DNA from: Escherichia coli
GTDB lineage: Bacteria; Pseudomonadota; Gammaproteobacteria; Enterobacterales; Enterobacteriaceae
DNA: 17,976 bases
Strand: one strand, 5' to 3'
NCBI RefSeq assembly: GCF_003334385.1
Contig: NZ_QOWN01000062.1
The notes beneath the pieces are model-generated. The model saw nothing but the letters and a program-made list of their open reading frames with translations. It did no database searches and was not told the origin of the DNA. Position numbers and translations under genes: made by a program. Position 1 is the first letter of the stretch, and each line of letters opens with the position of its first letter. Positions 3,369 through 15,314 of this stretch are shown here, piece by piece.

Positions 3369-3873
3369 ACAGGCTCGTGAGGCTCTGGATGCCTGGATAT
3401 GTCGACCAGGAATGACACAGGAGCAGGCGACGATATTAATCACTGAAGCATTCTGGGCTTTGAAAGAGCGCCCGAACATCGATGTTCAGCGTGTCACATA
3501 TGAAGGTGGCGCGATTGATCAGCGAGCGCTTGGCGTTAATCGAGTGAAGATATTTGAACGCTGGAAGGCTATCGACACCAGGGATAAGCGTGAAAAGTTC
3601 ACGGCGCTAGTGCCTGCAATTATGGAGGCTATCCGGATTAATGATTTCAGGTTGTATCGTGAAATTACTGACGGAAAAAGCATCACGTGCATGATCGCCG
3701 GGTTAAACAAAGAATATGGCGATGTGGTGGAGTCCGGACTGCTTTTTGCTGATCCTGCCGTAGTGGATCGTGAAACTGACGAACTTATAGAAAAAGCAAT
3801 TGCTTTCAAACTTGCGTATCGACAGCAATACCAACAAAAAGCTGGATGGAATTATGAGCCTTCTTTTTGCTGA
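3352..3873 (+). CDS. Hypothetical 173-aa protein at the CII position (possibly YdaT-like); function not recognised
   Basis: Track ORF; ATG overlaps the dicC-like 3' end by 17 nt, suggesting translational coupling. Family assignment is a guess from gene position. Confidence 0.55.
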   Translation: MKITPEQAREALDAWICRPGMTQEQATILITEAFWALKERPNIDVQRVTYEGGAIDQRALGVNRVKIFERWKAIDTRDKREKFTALVPAIMEAIRINDFRLYREITDGKSITCMIAGLNKEYGDVVESGLLFADPAVVDRETDELIEKAIAFKLAYRQQYQQKAGWNYEPSFC

Positions 3874-4819
3874 ACGCCCACTGGTTATAAACACGCAGCT
3901 GGCAATGAAAATTGGCTTAAACGAAGCCATTGTTTTGCAACAACTGCACTACTGGTTGAGAGATACCAACTCCGGCATGGAATGTGATGGTGTTCGCTGG
4001 ATTTATAACACAACGGAACAATGGCTGGAACAGTTCCCATTCTGGTCAGAGTCAACGTTAAAGCGCGCGTTTGCAAGTCTGAAAACGCTGGGGCTTTTGC
4101 GTTGTGAAAAGCTCAATAAATCAAAGCGCGATATGACCAATTTCTACACGATCAACTATGGGTGCGAGCTTTTAGATGGTGGCAAATTGAGCGAATCCAT
4201 CGGTTCAAAATGCGCCGCTCCATCAGGTCAAAATGACACGATGGAAGAGGTCAAAATGAAACGCTCCATTGGTTCAAAACGACCCAATGTCATCGGGTCA
4301 AAATGGCCTGATGATCTTACAGAGAATACAACAGAGATTACTACAGAGAATAAAAACACTTTTCGTCCGGAAGCTTCGCAACCGGACCCGCAGACGACTG
4401 AACAGGATTTTTTAACCCGGAACTCCGACGCGGTTGTGTTTAGTGCGAAAAAACGCCAGTGGGGTAGCAGGGAGGATTTGGCGTGTGCGCAGTGGATCTG
4501 GGGGCGGATCGTGGGTCTCTACGAACAGGCAGCCAGTGATGATGGCGAGATCATGCGACCAAAAGAGCCTAACTGGACTGCCTGGGCCAATGACGTGCGC
4601 ACAATGCGGATGCTGGATGGCAGAAGCCACAGACAAATTTGCGAAATGTTTGGTCGGGTTCAGCGAGATCCATTCTGGGTAAAAAACATCATGAGCCCGT
4701 CAAAGCTCCGCGAAAAATGGGACGAACTGGTCATCCGCCTGGGACGTTCACCTGTACAGCGTTGTGTTAATCATATTTCTGAACCGGATACAGAAATTCC
4801 GCCTGGTTTCAGAGGATAA
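3854..4819 (+). CDS. Phage replication initiator / replisome-organizer protein (lambda O-like role), 321 aa from the ATG at 3854
   Basis: Track ORF 3800..4819; preferred start at 3854 (MSLLFAERPLVINTQLAMKIGLNEAIVLQQLHYWL, an HTH-like N-terminus). The gene contains five iteron repeats at 4196-4305, as ori-lambda lies inside O. Confidence 0.7.
   Translation: MSLLFAERPLVINTQLAMKIGLNEAIVLQQLHYWLRDTNSGMECDGVRWIYNTTEQWLEQFPFWSESTLKRAFASLKTLGLLRCEKLNKSKRDMTNFYTINYGCELLDGGKLSESIGSKCAAPSGQNDTMEEVKMKRSIGSKRPNVIGSKWPDDLTENTTEITTENKNTFRPEASQPDPQTTEQDFLTRNSDAVVFSAKKRQWGSREDLACAQWIWGRIVGLYEQAASDDGEIMRPKEPNWTAWANDVRTMRMLDGRSHRQICEMFGRVQRDPFWVKNIMSPSKLREKWDELVIRLGRSPVQRCVNHISEPDTEIPPGFRG
4196..4305 (+). repeat. 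Five direct iterons (core GGT(T)CAAAA(T/C)G) at 22-25 bp spacing inside the replication gene; candidate replication origin
   Basis: Core starts at 4202, 4226, 4249, 4271 and 4296, with flanks TCCATCGGTTCAAAATG, TCCATCAGGTCAAAATG, GAGGTCAAAATG, TCCATTGGTTCAAAACG and GTCATCGGGTCAAAATG. Followed at 4320-4356 by three ACAGAGA(A/T)TA repeats in an A-rich stretch. Confidence 0.6.
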
Positions 4820-4859
4820 GTGTTGATTTCAGGTCATGAGGTAATTTTAAGGGGGACTT

Positions 4860-5282
4860 GTGGCAAAAGTTTTTACACAAGAAGAGCGGGAAAAAATTAA
4901 ATGGCAGGTGGTGGAACTCGTGCGCCAGAGCGGCCGTGAGACGTTACGGCAACTGGAAGCTAAAACAGGTGCGACTAGATATCTGATGAGCGTTCTTGCC
5001 AGAGAGCTGGTAGCCAGTGGCGATGTATACAACTCCGGCTACGGGTTATTCCCCTCTGAACAGGCGCGTAAGGACTGGCAAAACGCCCGCAAAAAACTCT
5101 CGAGGGCAAAGGTGAAGAAACCTGCTTTGGTTGATCCGGACCTTATCTGGTCATCACCTGACGGAGAAATACGTCGCTACGACAGTCGCCTAAACATAAT
5201 CTGTCGCGAGTGCCGGAAGAGCGAAGTTATGCAGCGCATACTGGCTTTCTATCAGGGTAATTTTCAGGACGTGGCGCAGTGA
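4860..5282 (+). CDS. Hypothetical 140-aa protein (GTG start), downstream of the replication initiator
   Basis: Track ORF preceded by AAGGGGGA Shine-Dalgarno. Its stop overlaps the GTG start of the following methyltransferase ORF (GTGA). No recognisable motif. Confidence 0.5.
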   Translation: MAKVFTQEEREKIKWQVVELVRQSGRETLRQLEAKTGATRYLMSVLARELVASGDVYNSGYGLFPSEQARKDWQNARKKLSRAKVKKPALVDPDLIWSSPDGEIRRYDSRLNIICRECRKSEVMQRILAFYQGNFQDVAQ

Positions 5283-5725
5283 GTGCACCGGCAACCATTC
5301 TTGATATGTGCTGTGGCAGCCGCATGTTCTGGTTCGATAAGTCTGACGAACGGGCGATATTCAGCGATATCAGAAAAGAAGGATACACATTACGCAATGG
5401 GAGACGCTTGATTATCAGCCCTGACATTATCGCAGATTTTCGTGCATTATCATTTGCAGACGCATCTTTTTCGATGGTTGTATTAGACCCTCCGCATCTT
5501 GAGAGTGTTGGTGATAACGCCTGGATGGGAAAGAAATATGGACGGCTGAATAAAGATGCCTGGCGTGATGATTCGCGACAGAGATTTAAAGAAGCCTTTC
5601 GGGTGTTGAGGCCGCACGGCGTTCTGATTTTTTAATGGAATGAAACGCAAATACCGGTAAGCCAGATTCTGGCACTGACAGACAGAAAACCTGTTATCTG
5701 TCAACGAACAGGGAAAAAACGATAA
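5279..5725 (+). pseudogene. DNA amino-methyltransferase (motif I DMCCGS, motif IV DPPH) interrupted by an in-frame TAA at 5633-5635
   Basis: Track ORF 5279..5635 carries VVLDPPHLE, the D-P-P-[YFWH] catalytic motif of N6A/N4C methyltransferases, and a SAM-binding-like ILDMCCGS. The same frame continues after the TAA for 29 codons (WNETQIPVSQILALTDRKPVICQRTGKKR) to a TAA at 5723-5725. Confidence 0.5.
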
Positions 5726-5897
5726 AACCCACTGGATTATTTTTATGAAAGAGGCATCCAGTGAGTAGATTCGTAAGGCTACAGATACGTATATCTGAAT
5801 AATTAAATTCAGTTCTGTAAATAAAATTTAATCCTTAACCGGATGGATTTCTGCACCCTCAGAACATCAGGAGGCAGCCCGAAAGGGCGGTAGTGAA

Positions 5898-6080
5898 ATG
5901 CGAAAGTTCAAAATTATTATTGAAACGGGAATAGCTGGTGGAGATTTTGAGGATGTATTCGAAGTGGACGATGACGCAACACCTGAGGAAATTCATGACG
6001 GAGCATAAGAAATTTTCTTTAACTACTGCAATTACTCATACCACGAAATAAAAGACGATGAGGAAGAACAAAGTGGCTGA
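5898..6080 (+). pseudogene. Small acidic ORF (36 codons) with an in-frame TAA at 6006-6008 and a 23-codon in-frame continuation
   Basis: MRKFKIIIETGIAGGDFEDVFEVDDDATPEEIHDGA, stop, then EIFFNYCNYSYHEIKDDEEEQSG in the same frame. Manual translation. Confidence 0.3.
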
Positions 6081-6249
6081 TTTTTGTTCAGCTAAATATA
6101 ACATCAGTTTTGAAGAGCGGGATGAACTATTAATGGACTATGGTGAGTTACGCGGTGGAAGTGCTGCTGATGTCGAATCCTAGCGTGATGACTATGAAGC
6201 GGGAAAAACTCCGGTCGAAGCATATTGTGATGAGTGGGGCGATGAATGA
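6058..6249 (+). pseudogene. Small ORF (41 codons) with an in-frame TAG at 6181-6183 and a 21-codon acidic in-frame continuation
   Basis: MRKNKVADFCSAKYNISFEERDELLMDYGELRGGSAADVES, stop, then RDDYEAGKTPVEAYCDEWGDE. The terminal TGA overlaps the ATG of the next ORF (ATGA). Confidence 0.35.
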
Positions 6250-6533
6250 GCGAGATTAATTATCAGGAAGGGCATGAAACGGCGGGGCAAGCAAAACCAG
6301 TGGCATGGCGATATCGCTACGTGAAAAAAGGCGTTACGGACTTTCAGGGGAAGTAGTGGTCTGGTGACTGGAAATATGTACCGAAAAAAGAGGATTGTAA
6401 CGACAGGCCGAACTATCAAATTCAGGCCTTATTCACTGCCTCACCAGTCCCAGTTACATCAGAAGAACTGGTTAAAGCTGTGCACTTTTATGAACAACTA
6501 AAACGCGAAAATCCACCAACATCCGGCAACTAG
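6246..6533 (+). pseudogene. Small ORF (36 codons) with an in-frame TAG at 6354-6356 and a 58-codon in-frame continuation
   Basis: MSEINYQEGHETAGQAKPVAWRYRYVKKGVTDFQGK, stop, then WSGDWKYVPKKEDCNDRPNYQIQALFTASPVPVTSEELVKAVHFYEQLKRENPPTSGN in the same frame. Confidence 0.4.
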
Positions 6534-6787
6534 ATTAATGGATTAACTATGTCGGTTAAACGACCAGCCAACTGAAAAAGCGGAAACCTGATTACAGGTT
6601 GCCAGATAAGGCAATGAGCTACCTGGCGCGGAACGGACTGATAAGTATGGGGAATGTTTTACGATGAACCTTTAGACTAAAGAGTTTGTAACGCTATGTA
6701 AGTGATTTTTTCTGGTTTAGATATTTATATGTCCGGCCAAATTGAGGTGTGTTTAAATGTAATTGCACATTGATTGTAGGAGGAATA

Positions 6788-6967
6788 ATGAAAAACGCAT
6801 TGCAGTTTTTGTTTGTTGCGTTCTGGTTGTTCGCATCATGTATGCCCATCATCTTCACAGCAAGGTATATGGAAAAAGTTGATGTTTTGATATTAATATT
6901 TGGATATATAAATGCCCTTTTTTTAGGGGTGTTCATGGCGGTCATGTGCATTGAATACTGGCGGTAA
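6788..6967 (+). CDS. Small hydrophobic protein, 59 aa, two predicted transmembrane segments
   Basis: ATG at 6788 with AGGAGG at 6778-6783. MKNALQFLFVAFWLFASCMPIIFTARYMEKVDVLILIFGYINALFLGVFMAVMCIEYWR. No antisense gene explains it. Confidence 0.45.
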   Translation: MKNALQFLFVAFWLFASCMPIIFTARYMEKVDVLILIFGYINALFLGVFMAVMCIEYWR

Positions 6968-7301
6968 ATACAGCGAACTCCATTGGTTTAGTTGGATATT
7001 TACTGTGCTGGACAAAAACGGTTTGCGGGGAAATCTTAGTTAAGTAGAATGACTGCGGGTGCTTGAGGCTATCTGCCTCGGGCATGGACACCAACGGCAG
7101 ATAGAGAAAAGCCCCAGTTAACATTACGCGTCCTGCAAGACGCTTAACATTAATCTGAGGCCAATTTCATGCTAGACACATGTAGGTTAGCCTCTTACGT
7201 GCCGAAAGGCACGGAGAAGCAGGCTATTGTTAACACCAAGCTGTAATGTCCCCTTTGAACCATTCTAAAATGTCCCCAGACAATTCTCTGGGGGATTTTT
7301 C

Positions 7302-8615
7302 ATGATCAAAGAGACTGTTACGATGAGTCATAAGGAACTCCACCGACTTCAGATTATTCAGGAACAAGCTGCGGCACGCATTGGCATTTCTATTCGGCAG
7401 GTTAAACGTCTGGTGCAACGGTATAGAAATGAAGGGCCTTCTGGTCTGGTTTCCCACCGACGTGGAAAGCGTCCTAATAATTCCTTTTCTACTGAATTCA
7501 GAGCAACAGTAATTTCACTCCTCAAAGGCCGTTACGCTGATTTTGGACCTACGTTTGCGTGCGAAAAATTGCGCGAGATACACGGTTTATCTTTATCCGT
7601 TGAAACTCTCAGAAAGTGGATGATAGAAGAGGGGTTATGGCGTGAACGCCGTCGTAAAATTGCCCGTATATATCAACGCCGCATGCGACGACCATCTTAC
7701 GGTGAACTGATCCAGATTGATGGCTCACCTCATGACTGGTTTGAAAATCGAGGCCCCAGATGTACACTGATCGTTTTCATTGATGATGCCACCAGTGCGT
7801 TGATGGCGTTGCGTTTTGTGCCTGCTGAAACAACCCGGGCTTACATGGAAACCCTCCGGGGTTACCTTAATGATCATGGCGTACCGCTCGCTCTCTACTC
7901 TGATAGACACAGTATATTCAGGGTAAATAACCCAGAGCGGGAAGGTGAGCTGACCCAGTTCACTCGTGCGATAAAGACACTGGGCATCGAGCCAATCCAT
8001 GCCAACAGCCCGCAGGCAAAAGGGCGGGTAGAGCGCGCCAATCAGACACTACAGGACAGGCTGGTCAAAGAAATGCGGCTTCAGAATATCAGTGATATTG
8101 AAACAGCAAATGCATGGTTGCCGACCTTTATTGAAGCCTATAACAACCGGTTCGCTACGTCGCCTCGTACTACTGATAATGCTCATCTTGATGTGCACCA
8201 TTCTGAAGAGGAACTGGGTTATATCTTCAGCCTACAGGCGAAGCGCGTTCTGTCTAAAAATCTCACTTTCCAGTACAAAAGCAGTGCGTTTCAGGTACGC
8301 AGTGAGGGCCGGGGATATCGACTTAGGCATTCGGTTGTTACTGTATGCGAGAACTTTGACGGTGAAATTAACGTTCTGTATGACGGGAAAGCGCTGGGCT
8401 GGGAAAAGTATGTTGATGGCCCGGAGCCTATACCACTGGATGATGAAAAGAGTGTCCATGAACGAGTGGATAATGCCCGTATTGATTTACGCTCAAAATA
8501 CTATGTTAAACCTAAAGCTGACCATCCCTGGCTTACGCGCCGAACGCAAAGTCATCAGCAAGTTAAGCCCCCGAAGTTACCTAAAAAGAAGCCTGATCCC
8601 GATAAAAAAGATTGA
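7302..8615 (+). CDS. IS-element DDE transposase (integrase-core/rve type with N-terminal HTH), 437 aa; family uncertain (IS481-like or ISNCY-like)
   Basis: Track ORF with HTH-like N-terminus (IGISIRQVKRLVQRY) and candidate DDE residues in IQIDGSPHDW, IVFIDDATSA and GRVERANQTLQD. Ends of the element could not be defined. Confidence 0.8.
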   Translation: MIKETVTMSHKELHRLQIIQEQAAARIGISIRQVKRLVQRYRNEGPSGLVSHRRGKRPNNSFSTEFRATVISLLKGRYADFGPTFACEKLREIHGLSLSVETLRKWMIEEGLWRERRRKIARIYQRRMRRPSYGELIQIDGSPHDWFENRGPRCTLIVFIDDATSALMALRFVPAETTRAYMETLRGYLNDHGVPLALYSDRHSIFRVNNPEREGELTQFTRAIKTLGIEPIHANSPQAKGRVERANQTLQDRLVKEMRLQNISDIETANAWLPTFIEAYNNRFATSPRTTDNAHLDVHHSEEELGYIFSLQAKRVLSKNLTFQYKSSAFQVRSEGRGYRLRHSVVTVCENFDGEINVLYDGKALGWEKYVDGPEPIPLDDEKSVHERVDNARIDLRSKYYVKPKADHPWLTRRTQSHQQVKPPKLPKKKPDPDKKD

Positions 8616-9018
8616 AACCAAGATCGATTCGGTTGAGTGCATATCCATTCATAGGGTAGATTCTTAAGTCGCGTTTCTGGTGTTCATTTTCGGGTGGTTT
8701 GTTACTTGTTTTACCGGGGATATGCCAGAAACGCGCTGAGTCAGTCTGGGCGGTGCGCGTAATGAGGCGTTATGGTAAATAGCCTATGCTAATGTCCGCT
8801 AAGAGCAAGAAGCGGAAGTTGGCAGTTTTGTGGACTGTCCCCACAAAAGTGACTACAGAAATAGTTGCAATTCATAATTGATCATGGGTTGTCAGTTAAA
8901 CTCGTGGCGATTTAAATAGACTAATTGGGAGTGCGTCCATTACTTATATCTTGTAATGTTAACTATCAGAAATGATACAAAGATAATATGTCTTTAAAGA
9001 AAAGGCTGATGGCGAAAA

Positions 9019-9037
9019 GTGGCCCGATGAGGGCCAC
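9019..9037 (-). terminator. Candidate intrinsic terminator downstream of flxA
   Basis: Hairpin GTGGCCC-GATGA-GGGCCAC just 3' of the flxA stop; on the minus strand it is followed by a short T-rich tract (TTTTCGCC). Confidence 0.35.
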
Positions 9038-9051
9038 AATACGGCTGTCAC

Positions 9052-9384
9052 TTAGACGTAAATATCAATGGTGCCAGCGGTATTTGTATCGTCTTTTTTC
9101 TCTTCTTTTTTATCAGGCTGAACTGTCGCGTCTTCATTCTTTTTCTCTGCCTGCTGCCTTAACAACTGCTCCAGTTGAGCCCAGAGGCTTTCAATTTGCT
9201 TCTGTACCAATGCAGCCATTTCTTTTTTCTGCTGTGTCGTCATCCCCTCTTCCGATGAGATTTTCCCAAGCTTTTCAGTCAGCACCTGAATTTGTCTTGT
9301 GATTTTGGCTATTTCTGATGTTCCTTCCGGGGCGGAGTTGTTTGAAATAACGGTTGAGGTATTTCCCTGAATTGTGACAGACAT
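9052..9384 (-). CDS. flxA: FlxA (110 aa)
   Basis: Track ORF MSVTIQGNTSTVISNNSAPEGTSEIAKITRQIQVLTEKLG... matches FlxA as I recall it. AAGGAG Shine-Dalgarno and a sigma-28 promoter lie upstream. Confidence 0.85.
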   Translation of the reverse strand: MSVTIQGNTSTVISNNSAPEGTSEIAKITRQIQVLTEKLGKISSEEGMTTQQKKEMAALVQKQIESLWAQLEQLLRQQAEKKNEDATVQPDKKEEKKDDTNTAGTIDIYV

Positions 9385-9407
9385 AGATTTCTCCTTTTAA
9401 AAAAGCA

Positions 9408-9434
9408 CTATCGGCATGCACAAAAAAATCTTTA
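9408..9434 (-). promoter_or_regulatory. Sigma-28 (FliA) class promoter for flxA
   Basis: Minus strand reads TAAAGATT - 11 nt - GCCGATAG, against the consensus TAAAGTTT-N11-GCCGATAA, about 25 nt upstream of the flxA start. Confidence 0.6.
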
Positions 9435-9586
9435 ATCGTATTTCTTGTGTCATTAATTGTTTGATGTTCAGATTGTTTTCCTCGCGGGCTGGCGCGCCTC
9501 AGAAAGTAAAGCTTGTTGACAGGGGTAAACGTTCGGCAATAATTTTCTGCCGCATGCGGGTGTTGCATAAAACGTGTTACGTTCCT

Positions 9587-9892
9587 TTATCGACAGGTCA
9601 GGTCACCGCTCACCCGCCGACGAGAAAGCAACACTGACATGCTAAAGCAAAAAATAGATGAATAAGTTGAGTTGTGCATATGTAGCCTGACCGTCACAAA
9701 GTATATGGTGTCTGTACCAGTAAGATGATGGCCGGACTCTTTAAAAACGAGCTGACCTGCACAATACAGGATGGACTTAGCAATGGCTGCTCCTGGCACA
9801 AAGCGGACAGTGATCACCGTTCTTACGACTACTTTCTGACTTCCTTCGTGACTTGCCCTAAGCATGTTGTAGTGCGATACTTGTAATGACAT
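9587..9892 (-). CDS. ORF at the ydfV position (101 codons); coding status uncertain
   Basis: Track ORF MSLQVSHYNMLRASHEG... between flxA and relB; same length as ydfV in K-12 as I recall. No motif support. Confidence 0.2.
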   Translation of the reverse strand: MSLQVSHYNMLRASHEGSQKVVVRTVITVRFVPGAAIAKSILYCAGQLVFKESGHHLTGTDTIYFVTVRLHMHNSTYSSIFCFSMSVLLSRRRVSGDLTCR

Positions 9893-9905
9893 TTGTAATT
9901 ACAAG
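9881..9905 (+). promoter_or_regulatory. relO operator of the relBE promoter
   Basis: TTGTAATGACATTTGTAATTACAAG, with inverted TTGTAAT/ATTACAA repeats, directly upstream of the relB Shine-Dalgarno (GAGGTG) and ATG at 9917. Confidence 0.7.
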
Positions 9906-9916
9906 AGGTGTAAGAC

Positions 9917-10156
9917 ATGGGTAGCATTAACCTGCGTATTGACGATGAACTTAAAGCGCGTTCTTACGCCGCGCTTGAAAAAATGGGTGTAACTCCTTCT
10001 GAAGCGCTTCGTCTCATGCTCGAGTATATCGCTGACAATGAACGCTTGCCGTTCAAACAGACACTCCTGAGTGATGAAGATGCTGAACTTGTGGAGATAG
10101 TGAAAGAACGGCTTCGTAATCCTAAGCCAGTACGTGTGACGCTGGATGAACTCTGA
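9917..10156 (+). CDS. relB: RelB antitoxin (79 aa)
   Basis: MGSINLRIDDELKARSYAALEKMGVTPSEALRLMLEYIADNERLPFKQTLLSDEDAELVEIVKERLRNPKPVRVTLDEL; near-identical to RelB as I recall it. Confidence 0.92.
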   Translation: MGSINLRIDDELKARSYAALEKMGVTPSEALRLMLEYIADNERLPFKQTLLSDEDAELVEIVKERLRNPKPVRVTLDEL

Positions 10157-10443
10157 TGGCGTATTTTCTGGATTTTGACGAGCGGGCACTAAAGGAATGG
10201 CGAAAGCTGGGCTCGACGGTACGTGAACAGTTGAAAAAGAAGCTGGTTGAAGTACTTGAGTCACCCCGGATTGAAGCAAACAAGCTCCGTGGTATGCCTG
10301 ATTGTTACAAGATTAAGCTCCGGTCTTCAGGCTATCGCCTTGTATACCAGGTTATAGACGAGAAAGTTGTCGTTTTCGTGATTTCTGTTGGGAAAAGAGA
10401 ACGCTCGGAAGTATATAGCGAGGCGGTCAAACGCATTCTCTGA
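10156..10443 (+). CDS. relE: RelE mRNA-interferase toxin (95 aa)
   Basis: MAYFLDFDERALKEWRKLGSTVREQLKKKLVEVLESPRIEANKLRGMPDCYKIKLRSSGYRLVYQVIDEKVVVFVISVGKRERSEVYSEAVKRIL. ATG overlaps the relB stop (ATGA). Confidence 0.92.
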   Translation: MAYFLDFDERALKEWRKLGSTVREQLKKKLVEVLESPRIEANKLRGMPDCYKIKLRSSGYRLVYQVIDEKVVVFVISVGKRERSEVYSEAVKRIL

Positions 10444-10514
10444 ACCAAAGCATGACATCTCTGTTTCGCACCGAAGGTGACACTTCTGCTTTGCGTTGAC
10501 AGGAGAAGCAGGCT

Positions 10515-10670
10515 ATGAAGCAGCAAAAGGCGATGTTAATCGCCCTGATCGTCATCTGTTTAACCGTCATAGTGACGGCACTGGTAACGAGGAAAGACCT
10601 CTGCGAGGTACGAATCCGAACCGGCCAGACGGAGGTCGCTGTCTTCACAGCTTACGAACCTGAGGAGTAA
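10515..10670 (+). CDS. hokD: HokD (RelF) Hok-family membrane toxin, 51 aa
   Basis: Manual translation MKQQKAMLIALIVICLTVIVTALVTRKDLCEVRIRTGQTEVAVFTAYEPEE; GGAGAAG Shine-Dalgarno. Under 60 aa, so absent from the ORF track. Confidence 0.9.
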   Translation: MKQQKAMLIALIVICLTVIVTALVTRKDLCEVRIRTGQTEVAVFTAYEPEE

Positions 10671-10735
10671 GAGACCCGGCGGGGGAGAAATCCCTCGCCA
10701 CCTCTGATGTGGCAGGCATCCTCAACGCACCCGCA

Positions 10736-10768
10736 CTTAACCCGCTTCGGCGGGTTTTTGTTTTTATT
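10736..10768 (+). terminator. Intrinsic terminator after relBE-hokD
   Basis: CCCGC-TTCG-GCGGG hairpin followed by TTTTTGTTTTTATTTT. Confidence 0.6.
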
Positions 10769-10886
10769 TTCAACGCGTTTGAAGTTCTGGACGGTGCCGG
10801 AATAGAATCAAAAATACTTAAGTAGCGCGCAGGGATAAGAGGGATGGTCCCTTAAAGGGGAGAGCTAATTATCCGGAAGGATTCTG

Positions 10887-11192
10887 ATGATGAACATCGA
10901 AGAACTGCGTAAAATTTTTTGTGAAGATGGCCTCTATGCTGTGTGCGTTGAAAATGGAAATCTTGTTAGTCATTACCGCATTATGTGTTTGCGAAAGAAT
11001 GGGGCTGCGTTAATTAATTTTGTGGATGCTCGGGTCACGGACGGATTTATCTTGCGCGAAGGTGAGTTTGTCACTTCATTACAGGCATTGAAAGAGATCG
11101 GAATAAAAGCTGGCTTTTCTGCTTTTCTGGTAACAAAGTGCTGGCAGGAAGAAGCATACGCGGAAGCGCAATTGAGGAAGGTGACGAGATAA
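10887..11192 (+). CDS. rem: Rem-like small protein
   Basis: Track ORF MMNIEELRKIFCEDGLYAVCVENGNLVSHYRIMCLRKNGAALINFVDARVTDGFILREGEF... resembles Rem of Qin. The C-terminus may differ in length from K-12. Confidence 0.65.
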   Translation: MMNIEELRKIFCEDGLYAVCVENGNLVSHYRIMCLRKNGAALINFVDARVTDGFILREGEFVTSLQALKEIGIKAGFSAFLVTKCWQEEAYAEAQLRKVTR

Positions 11193-11826: not shown

Positions 11827-12126
11827 AAAAATTCCTTAATACTGATAACTTGGCGCACTATACACACGTTCCTGAAGAAAGCTATAGTTTTTTGATGGGG
11901 TTGAAGATGGCTGGATGTCTAAAATAAACATTGCTTCATATGTTCAACTATGCGTTAATGATTGCGTCGGTTTGAAGAACAGACGATATACGAAGTAGTT
12001 TACTAAAGCAGTTCTCATTTCAGGTGTTATTCACTTATTCCTTCTTTGAGTCTCTCCAATTAAGTACGAAGTCGTTTCTGTTATGCAAACCATTTATGCC
12101 GAAAGGCTCAAGTTAAGGAATGTAGA

Positions 12127-12342
12127 ATGTCAAATAAAATGACTGGTTTAGTAAAATGGTTTAACGCTGATAAAGGTTTCGGCTTTATTTCTCCTGTTGA
12201 TGGTAGTAAAGATGTGTTTGTGCATTTTTCTGCGATTCAGAATGATAATTATCGAACCTTATTTGAAGGTCAAAAGGTTACCTTCTCTATAGAGAGTGGT
12301 GCTAAAGGTCCTGCAGCAGCAAATGTCATCATTACTGATTAA
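12127..12342 (+). CDS. cspB: Cold-shock protein CspB (71 aa)
   Basis: [71 protein letters not shown]. Long 5' UTR containing a TGCCGAAAGGC box, as in the csp family. Confidence 0.9.
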
Positions 12343-12624
12343 AATTCATCGCTCGTCTGTATACGATAACGAAGAAGGCTGATGCCTGAGTAGAGATACG
12401 GACAGAGTAGTGAATATTGGATCTCTTTAATAAAAAGTAAGGAGGTCCAATACATGAAACAATGGCCAGCATATTTGGCAAAATCTTAATCAGGAAAAGT
12501 ATGCTAACCATTGTGGTGAAGTGCAGGTTTGCTGCATGAATAGTTTTACAGCAGAAGCTAACTGCTGGCATGGCAAAACAAAGTGCGTAAGTGGATGACT
12601 CCCACAAAAAGCACCACAATCTCA

Positions 12625-14651: not shown

Positions 14652-15013
14652 GGTAATATTAAATCGGAACATTTACATCGCGGAATGTAAAATTTAAATA
14701 AAAAGGACTCTTCCATGAGCCAAAATTCCTGAAATCTTAAGGGTAAGATAAAAGGTCTTAATCAGAATGACACGTTTTATTAATAAATAAAGCTATTCTT
14801 TCATTGCTGTGTTTTTCTTTACAAAAGTAATCCTTGCTATGGGTGGTTAATCATGCGTTAATGGTGTTCTGGTTTGTTACAAATTTATCTGAAGCAGTCA
14901 TTGTTATAATTTTATTATTTGTACCTCTTGAGATTTCCTTGTTGGTTTTTCTCTCTGATATTTTTTTTCGGACCATTCTGCCCAAGGGCTAATTTCTTCA
15001 AAAGGTAATAATT

Positions 15014-15226
15014 ATGTCTAACAAAATGACTGGTTTAGTGAAATGGTTTAACCCTGAAAAAGGTTTTGGTTTCATCACGCCGAAAGATGGCAGCAAAGAT
15101 GTGTTTGTCCATTTCTCAGCAATTCAGAGCAACGATTTCAAAACATTAACTGAGAATCAGGAAGTTGAATTTGGTATTGAGAACGGACCTAAAGGTCCTG
15201 CCGCTGTTCATGTAGTGGCGCTTTGA
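15014..15226 (+). CDS. cspI: Cold-shock protein CspI (70 aa)
   Basis: [70 protein letters not shown]. Confidence 0.88.
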
Positions 15227-15314
15227 GGTAGACAATATTACAAACCATATTCACTTTAGATGCCCGTGTTGTCATGGTTCCCAGTATAGAACATCATCTT
15301 TTGATGTTTCTGAC

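Follow-up and report, generated by a model that had tools for sequence, protein, structure and literature searches.

Why does the toxin gene hokD stand directly behind relB and relE in Escherichia coli, and what restrains it in that position? relBE and hok/sok are textbook toxin–antitoxin (TA) systems, of type II and type I respectively, and to our knowledge no explanation has been given for their adjacency in K-12, a curiosity that dates from the 1980s. The question is taken up here with a 17,976-nucleotide stretch of E. coli DNA (contig NZ_QOWN01000062.1 of assembly GCF_003334385.1), the whole of which is called the window. An original prediction, made from its letters alone, placed a type II and a type I system in one transcription unit and left open how hokD is restrained. 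There is very probably a structural and evolutionary answer: a relBE-bearing transposon split a hok/sok locus and orphaned hokD. The open question thereby receives a structural reply, in that the transposon has separated promoter, tac element, mok start and sok from the toxin gene.

The relB–relE–hokD operon

The operon occupies the following positions.

9853..9905, + strand: relBE promoter, TTGCCC and GATACT 17 nt apart, with the operator relO; the promoter hexamers are putative, recognised by reading and below the threshold of the promoter scanner.
9880-9891/9894-9905: inverted repeat of relO, with 12-nt arms that are 92% complementary, plus TTGTAAT hexads.
9917..10156, + strand: relB, antitoxin (NCBIfam NF008412, 133 bits, cut-off 96).
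10156..10443, + strand: relE, toxin (TIGR02385, 54.7 bits, cut-off 27.9).
10515..10670, + strand: hokD (relF), an intact open reading frame (ORF) for a 51-residue Hok-family toxin.
10739..10765, + strand: hok terminator, at which the relBE transcript now ends as well, consisting of an intrinsic hairpin (10739-10756) and a T run.

relBE has the make-up of a type II operon: a RelB/DinJ antitoxin gene followed by a RelE toxin gene, an overlap between the two and a palindromic operator in the promoter. The operator palindrome of the original prediction is present as described. The overlap is also real, but does not read ATGA; the sequence is TGATG, in which the relB stop codon (10154-10156) and the relE start codon (10156-10158) share one base. 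The hokD product matches the NCBIfam Hok family with 48.5 bits, where 73 is the curated cut-off, and has the sequence of RefSeq WP_000813254.1, a protein common to occupied and uninterrupted hokD loci. As had been proposed, hokD has its own Shine-Dalgarno (SD) sequence, GGAG at 10502-10505, and the unit ends at a strong terminator; a terminator scan found no second one between relO and the hok terminator.

Positions 9800-10800 are 100% identical to K-12 derivatives, in which the genes are annotated as relB, relE and hokD. Probes for relB, relE and relF (hokD) detected one full-length mRNA, which was lost on deletion of PrelBEF (PMC3598666), and the single transcription unit of the prediction is in that sense experimentally established. 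Following toxin-induced cleavage, the relF part is the most stable and abundant segment of the relBEF mRNA (PMC3598666). Both the relBEF operon and its missing sok have already been published.

Of the two toxin systems predicted, relBE stands. The description of hokD as a type I system does not, as only a toxin ORF and the 3′ part of a locus are present. An Rfam search of 9800-10900 at E<=10 gave no sok match, and promoter scans of both strands around hokD revealed no sok-type promoter, the minus strand having no promoter-like site of any kind. These results agree with the earlier failure to identify a mok/sok-like element for hokD; a sok gene over the hokD leader, named in advance as the finding that would refute the prediction, was sought and is absent, and this part of the prediction stands. 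No mok start codon adjoins hokD. The ATG of mokD (7169) has been cut off by an insertion, and the truncated mok frame reads from 7169 into the left inverted repeat of the inserted element. Between the hok leader and the relBEF transcript no shared word is longer than 8 nt. The tac/fbi pairing expected of a hok mRNA cannot form within the present transcript: fbi (10720-10732) is kept, while its partner (7057-7068) lies outside. A sub-threshold Rfam match to isrK covers the hok 3′ fold and terminator (10679-10760, + strand; 25 bits against a gathering threshold of 50, E = 0.0045).

A transposon between the hok leader and the toxin gene

Where, then, is the remainder of the hok/sok locus? It is found 3.3 kb upstream, on the far side of an inserted element with the following parts.

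7228..10501, + strand: IS1202-family (ISEsa1-like) transposon of 3274 bp, carrying the transposase gene tnp, flxA, ydfV and relBE, with terminal inverted repeats (TIRs), a target site duplication (TSD) and a clean empty site.
7213..7227: left copy of the target duplication GGAGAAGCAGGCTAT, an exact repeat of 10502-10516.
10502..10516: right copy of the target duplication, which gives hokD its GGAG and the AT of its ATG.
7228..7253, + strand: left terminal inverted repeat (IRL), TGTTAACACCAAGCTGTAATGTCCCC.
10476..10501, + strand: right terminal inverted repeat (IRR), ending GGTGACACTTCTGCTTTGCGTTGACA, 59 nt past the relE stop and the same in plasmid and prophage copies.
7273..7294, + strand: terminator-like hairpin before the transposase start, an 8-bp stem followed by ATTTTTC.
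7302..8615, + strand: transposase, 437 residues (NCBIfam NF033594 ISNCY_2, full profile, 456 bits, cut-off 250).
9052..9384, − strand: flxA passenger (ORF and RefSeq annotation, within the element boundaries).
9587..9892, − strand: ydfV passenger, divergent from relB.

The split and the boundaries of the element are established by comparison with an uninterrupted locus (L001, E. coli 2012EL-2448). When 7037-7227 is joined to 10517-10800, the product aligns to L001 without gaps and with 470/475 identical positions, and GGAGAAGCAGGCTAT, which flanks the element on both sides in the window, is present once only in L001. In other genomes homology to the hokD region begins exactly at window position 10501. 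The left junction reads GGCAC GGAGAAGCAGGCTAT / TGTTAACACC and the hokD junction GCGTTGACA / GGAGAAGCAGGCTAT G AAG.

The element ends TGTTAAC...GTTGACA, and IRL matches the reverse complement of IRR at 19/26 positions (22/30). The motif ATGTCCCC of IRL is repeated at 7246 and 7270. No inverted-repeat match comparable to IRR was found beside the transposase gene. The tip of IRR (10496-10501) is TTGACA, a perfect outward-facing −35 hexamer; reading of the hok flank and of IRR–15 nt–IRL junctions showed no matching −10 and no evident hybrid or junction promoter. The hairpin at 7273-7294 may insulate tnp against read-in from the hok promoter.

Members of the IS1202 family are characterised by TGT/ACA ends, imperfect TIRs of ~24-26 bp, and a transposase of 400-500 residues with an N-terminal helix-turn-helix (HTH) and a DDE motif in which Q stands seven residues after E (PMC10132070). 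Their target duplications fall into classes of 3-6, 15-17 and 27-28 bp (bioRxiv 10.1101/2022.12.17.520857), and members with passenger genes exist (PMC10132070; bioRxiv 10.1101/2022.12.17.520857). The element shows the family's ends, TIRs, transposase features and duplication class. Its DDE motif has Q at E+7 (ERANQTLQ), a 446-residue form of the transposase contains Pfam HTH_28/HTH_32 and rve_3, and RefSeq lists close copies under the name ‘IS1202-like element ISEsa1 family transposase’. At hok sites the duplications are 14-16 bp, mostly 15 (seven insertions with both flanks), which fits the 15-17-bp class.

The upstream half of the locus, together with the 3′ element that it complements, comprises the following.

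7022..7050, + strand: putative hok promoter, TTGCGG/TTTGCG with −10 TAGAAT at 7045-7050.
7057..7227, + strand: hok leader, the 5′ half of the split mRNA, with tac (7057-7068), Sok target, mokD′ start ATG (7169) and SD region.
7103..7177, − strand: predicted Sok antisense gene of ~60-75 nt, with a putative promoter GTGCCT-17-TAACCT at 7212-7184.
10720..10732, + strand: fbi-like 3′ element CCTCAACGCACCC, complementary to 7057-7068.

In a scan of the whole window, the Rfam model RF01794 ‘sok’ has a single match, at 7057-7228, which covers its full length (1-157/157) with 104.1 bits (gathering threshold 59). The RNA reconstructed from the two halves (420 nt) folds better than shuffled controls (z = −7.85, 0/100 shuffles), and its 5′ end GGGUGCUUGAGG (7057-7068) pairs with CCUCAACGCACCC (10720-10732) in both the minimum free energy and the centroid folds. 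In L005, a PndA-type locus that the same element has split, a U>C change on the 5′ side is compensated by A>G on the 3′ side, indicating that both halves are parts of one RNA. The reconstructed mokD is an ORF of 70 residues in frame with hokD, the same arrangement as in K-12 mokC/hokC.

The promoter and the antisense gene are more tentatively placed. A promoter-scanner match in L001, TTGGCG-17-TAGAAT, shares its −10 with the window; homology to L001 begins at 7037, so that the −35 differs and the window promoter scores under the scanner threshold. The position of sok was set by analogy with K-12 sokC, which begins 9 nt within mokC, and the candidate RNA folds as a single-stranded 5′ tail, a long hairpin and a U-rich tail. 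The sole difference from uninterrupted loci near the junction is at 7212 (GGCAA>GGCAC, plus strand), which changes the putative sok −35 from TTGCCT to GTGCCT; among occupied loci 42 have C and 18 have A. This change may reflect decay after the split, or hitch-hiking. Judging by sequence, a Sok RNA from 7103-7177, if it is still made, has no pairing partner in the relBEF transcript.

Restraint of hokD

What, then, keeps hokD in check? In the R1 hok/sok system, translation of hok requires translation of mok together with a refolding pathway that involves the 5′ tac element. hokD has no promoter of its own, no mok start, no tac element and no Sok target; in the window these parts lie at 7037-7227, and in K-12 all of them are deleted. 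Very probably a hok/sok locus of a lambdoid prophage was cut by the 3.27-kb transposon, which has relBE as its right-end module, and hokD is the 3′ half that encodes the toxin. Insertion was staggered across GGAGAAGCAGGCTAT, which in the hok leader follows immediately on the conserved GGCAA, and through the resulting 15-bp duplication hokD keeps an SD sequence and ATG immediately behind the right end of the transposon. relBE has no terminator of its own, and transcripts from the promoter that RelB/RelE autorepress cross IRR and hokD to end at the hok terminator, producing the relBEF operon.

As to the restraint itself, we lean, with some reservation, towards a mechanism in which hokD would be held in check in three ways, none of them involving antisense RNA. 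Firstly, it would be reached only by low, autoregulated read-through transcription. Secondly, by analogy with R1 hok/mok, it would be poorly translated without mok and tac, and is presumably translationally silent. Thirdly, the genomic codon 47 encodes Tyr and would require A-to-I editing to Cys. The edited Cys is conserved in Hok homologues, with a role in toxicity demonstrated for HokB, and only ~6% of hokD mRNA is edited at this codon (PMC12214031). The same paper lists hokD as inactivated by ‘genomic rearrangement’, an entry that it takes from Pedersen & Gerdes 1999.

The arrangement could also be regarded, essentially as in the original prediction, as a selected three-gene module in which hokD is a working second effector, released upon induction of relBE (for example by amino-acid starvation or toxin cross-activation) and subject to some further control. 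The single transcript and the abundance of its relF segment after toxin-induced cleavage (PMC3598666) speak for such a module, as do the intact hokD ORF, SD sequence and 3′ fold at occupied loci and the recurrence of the arrangement with different hok subfamilies. This recurrence is, however, explained by the target specificity of the transposon, with its fixed distance from GGCAA and its duplications (see below), and the elements that hok translation needs have been physically removed. The low level of the Cys-restoring edit and the listing of hokD as inactivated (PMC12214031) also argue against a working effector, while intact ORFs may reflect recent insertion, copies of the element being 99.8% identical. 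A selected module is accordingly held to be unlikely.

Recurrent insertion at hok start regions

Is the insertion in the window a single accident? Loci were collected as exact matches to the first 21 nt of IRL in species-representative genomes (which yielded 5 loci), IMG/VR and metagenomes, together with plasmid loci. The collection comprises 96 loci with 33 distinct 35-nt left flanks, which were classified by hand. Hok leaders that end GCCGnAAGGCAA directly before GGAG make up 22/33, and in a further 4/33 the same 15-nt hok SD segment stands behind the end of another element (tandem stacking). Hok start regions thus account for 26/33 distinct left flanks, and the remaining 7/33 are other sequences. 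Orientation is constant in all hok-associated copies: IRL faces the leader, while the relBE–IRR end faces the hok ORF.

Insertion at hok starts has demonstrably occurred more than once. Seven insertions for which both flanks are available carry matched duplications that differ in sequence and length:

Window type, HokD-type prophage: GGAGAAGCAGGCTAT, 15 bp.
L078, HokD-type: GGAGAAGCAGGCTATG, 16 bp.
L005, IncI plasmid, PndA-type: TGGAGGGGCTATGAT, 15 bp.
L006, IncF plasmid: GGAGAAGAAGGCCA, 14 bp.
L075, R1-Hok-type: GGAGAAGAAGGCCATG, 16 bp.
L083, R1-Hok-type: GGAGAAGAAGGCCATG, 16 bp.
L119, IncHI2A plasmid, Hok-type locus: GGAGAAGAAGGCCAT, 15 bp.

In all seven the upstream edge of the duplication lies directly after GGCAA or its local equivalent, and we infer that the target is recognised at this fixed distance. 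The Rfam sok leader model stops exactly at IRL in six additional loci, and intact HokD-, Hok(R1)- or PndA-type peptides are encoded in 58/61 flanks downstream of IRR. In many PLSDB plasmids, from the genera Klebsiella, Enterobacter, Citrobacter, Salmonella and Leclercia, relE–IRR stands against an annotated Hok toxin. Plasmids of Salmonella, of several Enterobacter species and of E. coli carry, at 99.8% identity, a complete unit of 3301 bp with an intact transposase. Selection for hok inactivation was considered as the cause of the pattern and set aside, as it would fix neither the position to ~1 nt nor the orientation.

Stacking was observed in L007 (2212-2228) and L089, where relBE–IRR is separated by a 15-nt hok SD segment from a further element, which starts with its IRL. 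L100 and L107 have as left neighbour an insertion sequence (IS) of another kind, which ends GAACTTACACA, encodes a DDE transposase of 393 residues and abuts the same 15-nt segment.

Could the apparent targeting be an artefact of one ancestral insertion beside a single hok gene, spread subsequently by homologous recombination among hok sequences? Recombination between copies does occur, since L047 joins a left flank of PndA type to a right flank of HokD type, and 60/96 sampled loci represent the same prophage insertion. Recombination is, however, unable to create matched duplications of differing sequence and length, and those observed (TGGAGGGGCTATGAT, GGAGAAGAAGGCCA, GGAGAAGAAGGCCAT, GGAGAAGAAGGCCATG and GGAGAAGCAGGCTAT(G)) are of 14-16 bp and fit the local hok variant on both sides. 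Spread from a single insertion is consequently very improbable.

Cargo and the probable extent of ISEsa1

All variants of the element share a left segment of 1.58-1.62 kb (IRL and tnp) and a right module, ydfV′-relB-relE-IRR, with different cargo between them; a ydfV fragment accompanies relBE in every cargo variant examined. In the window the cargo is flxA-ydfV. A copy of 12,843 bp on the IncF plasmid pMS7884B (L117) carries ~11 kb of resistance genes, for nickel/cobalt (ncr) and for chromate (chr), and one of 6093 bp on the IncHI2A plasmid pN20S0154 (L119) carries IS110, cytochrome b and a CDF transporter. Other variants measure 2.3, 4.2 and 4.6 kb, giving an overall range of 2.3-12.8 kb, and elements with the same ends are located in prophages and on IncI, IncF and IncHI2 plasmids.

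These observations bear on ISEsa1, which ISfinder gives as 1609 bp and for which, as delimited, the Hall laboratory found no TSD (PMC10132070). In L117 and L119 the segments annotated as ‘ISEsa1’ are the left arms of the 12.8-kb and 6.1-kb transposons, which end with relBE–IRR beside a Hok gene. In 16 loci the point at which the conserved left arm stops shows neither an inverted repeat nor a duplication, and a free-standing 1.6-kb ISEsa1 was rejected as a candidate unit for want of any TIR or TSD at that boundary. Taken together, the missing TSD of the listed ISEsa1 and the missing repeat at the internal boundary suggest that IRR, next to relE, is where the element truly ends on the right. The limits that ISfinder gives for ISEsa1 should probably be redrawn.

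The notion that flxA-ydfV-relBE-hokD already stood together when a simple 1.6-kb ISEsa1 inserted upstream, with relBE outside the mobile element, agrees with the ISfinder length (PMC10132070) and with the ~1.58-1.62 kb from IRL at which the segment common to the variants ends, but can be dismissed with little hesitation: no inverted repeat or duplication stands at the internal boundary in any locus checked, the duplication and IRR lie beyond relE, the unit tnp...relBE–IRR moves whole between unrelated replicons with differing internal cargo, and the absence of a TSD for the current delimitation (PMC10132070) fits a misplaced right end.

Standing and significance of the account

Beyond the window, a wider proposal is favoured with moderate confidence. 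K-12 relBE would be the fixed right-end module of an IS1202-type transposon family with the structure IRL-tnp-variable cargo-relBE-IRR (2.3-12.8 kb, some members with nickel, chromate or cation-efflux genes), which homes one-way, at a fixed distance from GGCAA, into hok starts on prophages and conjugative plasmids. Each insertion would sever the toxin gene from its control region, place a type II module ahead of it and make use of its terminator; relBE–hok operons would have arisen repeatedly, and ISEsa1 (1.6 kb, no TSD) would be the left arm only. As to what the transposon gains, one may speculate that hok sites are conserved, dispensable and present on mobile replicons, and that the hok 3′ structure lends relBE a terminator and a stable 3′ end.

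Several points weigh against the account given here. Left flanks are not hok-like in 7/33 cases, and one complete element of 3301 bp (L015, 1345-4645) sits at a non-hok site near tRNA genes, with only a 6-bp repeat, CGCCTT. Transposition has not been observed, and mobility is deduced from near-identical copies at different sites with matching duplications. In the window the transposase lacks, in frame, nine residues (ESINRHITQ) of the first (N-terminal) HTH relative to the 446-residue form, and it may be inactive and the element non-autonomous. hokD may have retained function, in view of the intact ORFs at occupied loci and the accumulation of relF RNA after toxin-induced cleavage (PMC3598666). 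The predicted fold around the SD sequence also depends on the boundaries chosen, its mean unpaired probability being 0.50 for the relBEF tail alone and 0.19 for the whole transcript; folding is accordingly given no weight as a sign that the hokD start is sequestered.

In the six other non-hok left flanks, the sequence G/C-C-A/G-A often immediately precedes the 15-nt position and may point to a short core target motif.

A literature search found no paper that ties ISEsa1 or IS1202 elements to hok or relBE (ISfinder and TnCentral entries lay outside the search). While the locus is known, its explanation by a hok-homing transposon that ends with relBE appears to be undescribed in the searchable literature. 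If confirmed, hok starts would become the second natural target for the IS1202 family, after dif, and the occurrence of hokD without sok and mok would be explained. On plasmids and prophages, one addiction module would be seen to push aside physically the control region that belongs to another, and ISEsa1 would become a component of the larger transposons for metal resistance that IncF and IncHI2 plasmids carry. The element would also offer a compact single-protein system for site-specific insertion.

Other features of the window

Rfam matches elsewhere in the window are ordinary for a Qin-like prophage:

1420-1471, − strand: DicF small RNA.
11966-12358 and 14868-15253, + strand: cspA-type 5′ untranslated region thermoregulators of csp paralogues.

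Relative to K-12, the window is without 2108 bp at 11126/11127; ydfU is gone, and the ORF at 10887-11192 is an in-frame fusion of 80 codons from the start of rem with 21 from the end of ydfT. This deletion, as one piece, is absent from the best-matching complete genomes.

Comparison with known systems

The nearest known relative is relBEF of the K-12 Qin prophage, which resembles the window in its genes, operator, terminator and co-transcription (PMC3598666). K-12 MG1655 is identical to the window over 8431-11126. Unlike K-12, the window retains the left transposon end, a full-length transposase ORF and the sok/mok half. Qin is without window positions 3632-8430 (4.8 kb), which hold the hok leader/sok half together with IRL, the greater part of the transposase gene and genes of the replication region; ydfW consists of the last 49 transposase codons, and ydfX and ydfW are remnants at the edges of the deletion. 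hokD looks orphaned in K-12 because this deletion took the other half of the locus.

Uninterrupted HokD-type prophage loci such as L001 have the same leader, Hok protein, 3′ fold and terminator as the window, which differs from them by the 3274 bp between leader and ORF. Among complete E. coli genomes the uninterrupted hok junction is present in 4036/5426 and the relBE–hokD junction in 1162. hokW-sokW of the Sakai prophage Sp5 is a working type I TA system (PMC8621323), and its size of 51 residues and lambdoid prophage location suggest that hokW belongs to the HokD subfamily.

Chromosomal hok loci disabled by mobile elements are also known from K-12: hokA is inactivated by IS150, and hokC and hokE by IS186, according to Pedersen & Gerdes 1999 as cited in PMC12214031. 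There the IS lies beside the locus, whereas the element of the window sits exactly between leader and ORF, supplies a TA module and now drives transcription of the toxin gene.

Tn7, with its TnsB-type transposase and its attTn7 site, shares with the element TGT...ACA ends, repeated subterminal motifs, insertion in one orientation at a safe site and tandem stacking at that site. The element differs from it in having a single transposase gene and a long duplication, and no TnsC/D/E homologues were seen.

The closest parallel in targeting is provided by the ISAjo2/ISAba32 subgroup, whose targets are the XerC/D sites dif and pdif. These belong to the same family as the element and have TGT/ACA ends and imperfect TIRs of ~25 bp (PMC10132070; bioRxiv 10.1101/2022.12.17.520857), and their insertion is likewise specific for site and orientation, at a fixed distance from a conserved motif. 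Surveys of IS1202 report target specificity for dif/pdif only and no targeting for the subgroups with long duplications (PMC10132070; bioRxiv 10.1101/2022.12.17.520857). In contrast to ISAjo2/ISAba32, the element is found at the hok translation start instead of dif, produces duplications of 14-16 rather than 5 bp, and carries relBE at its right end together with variable cargo of up to ~11 kb.

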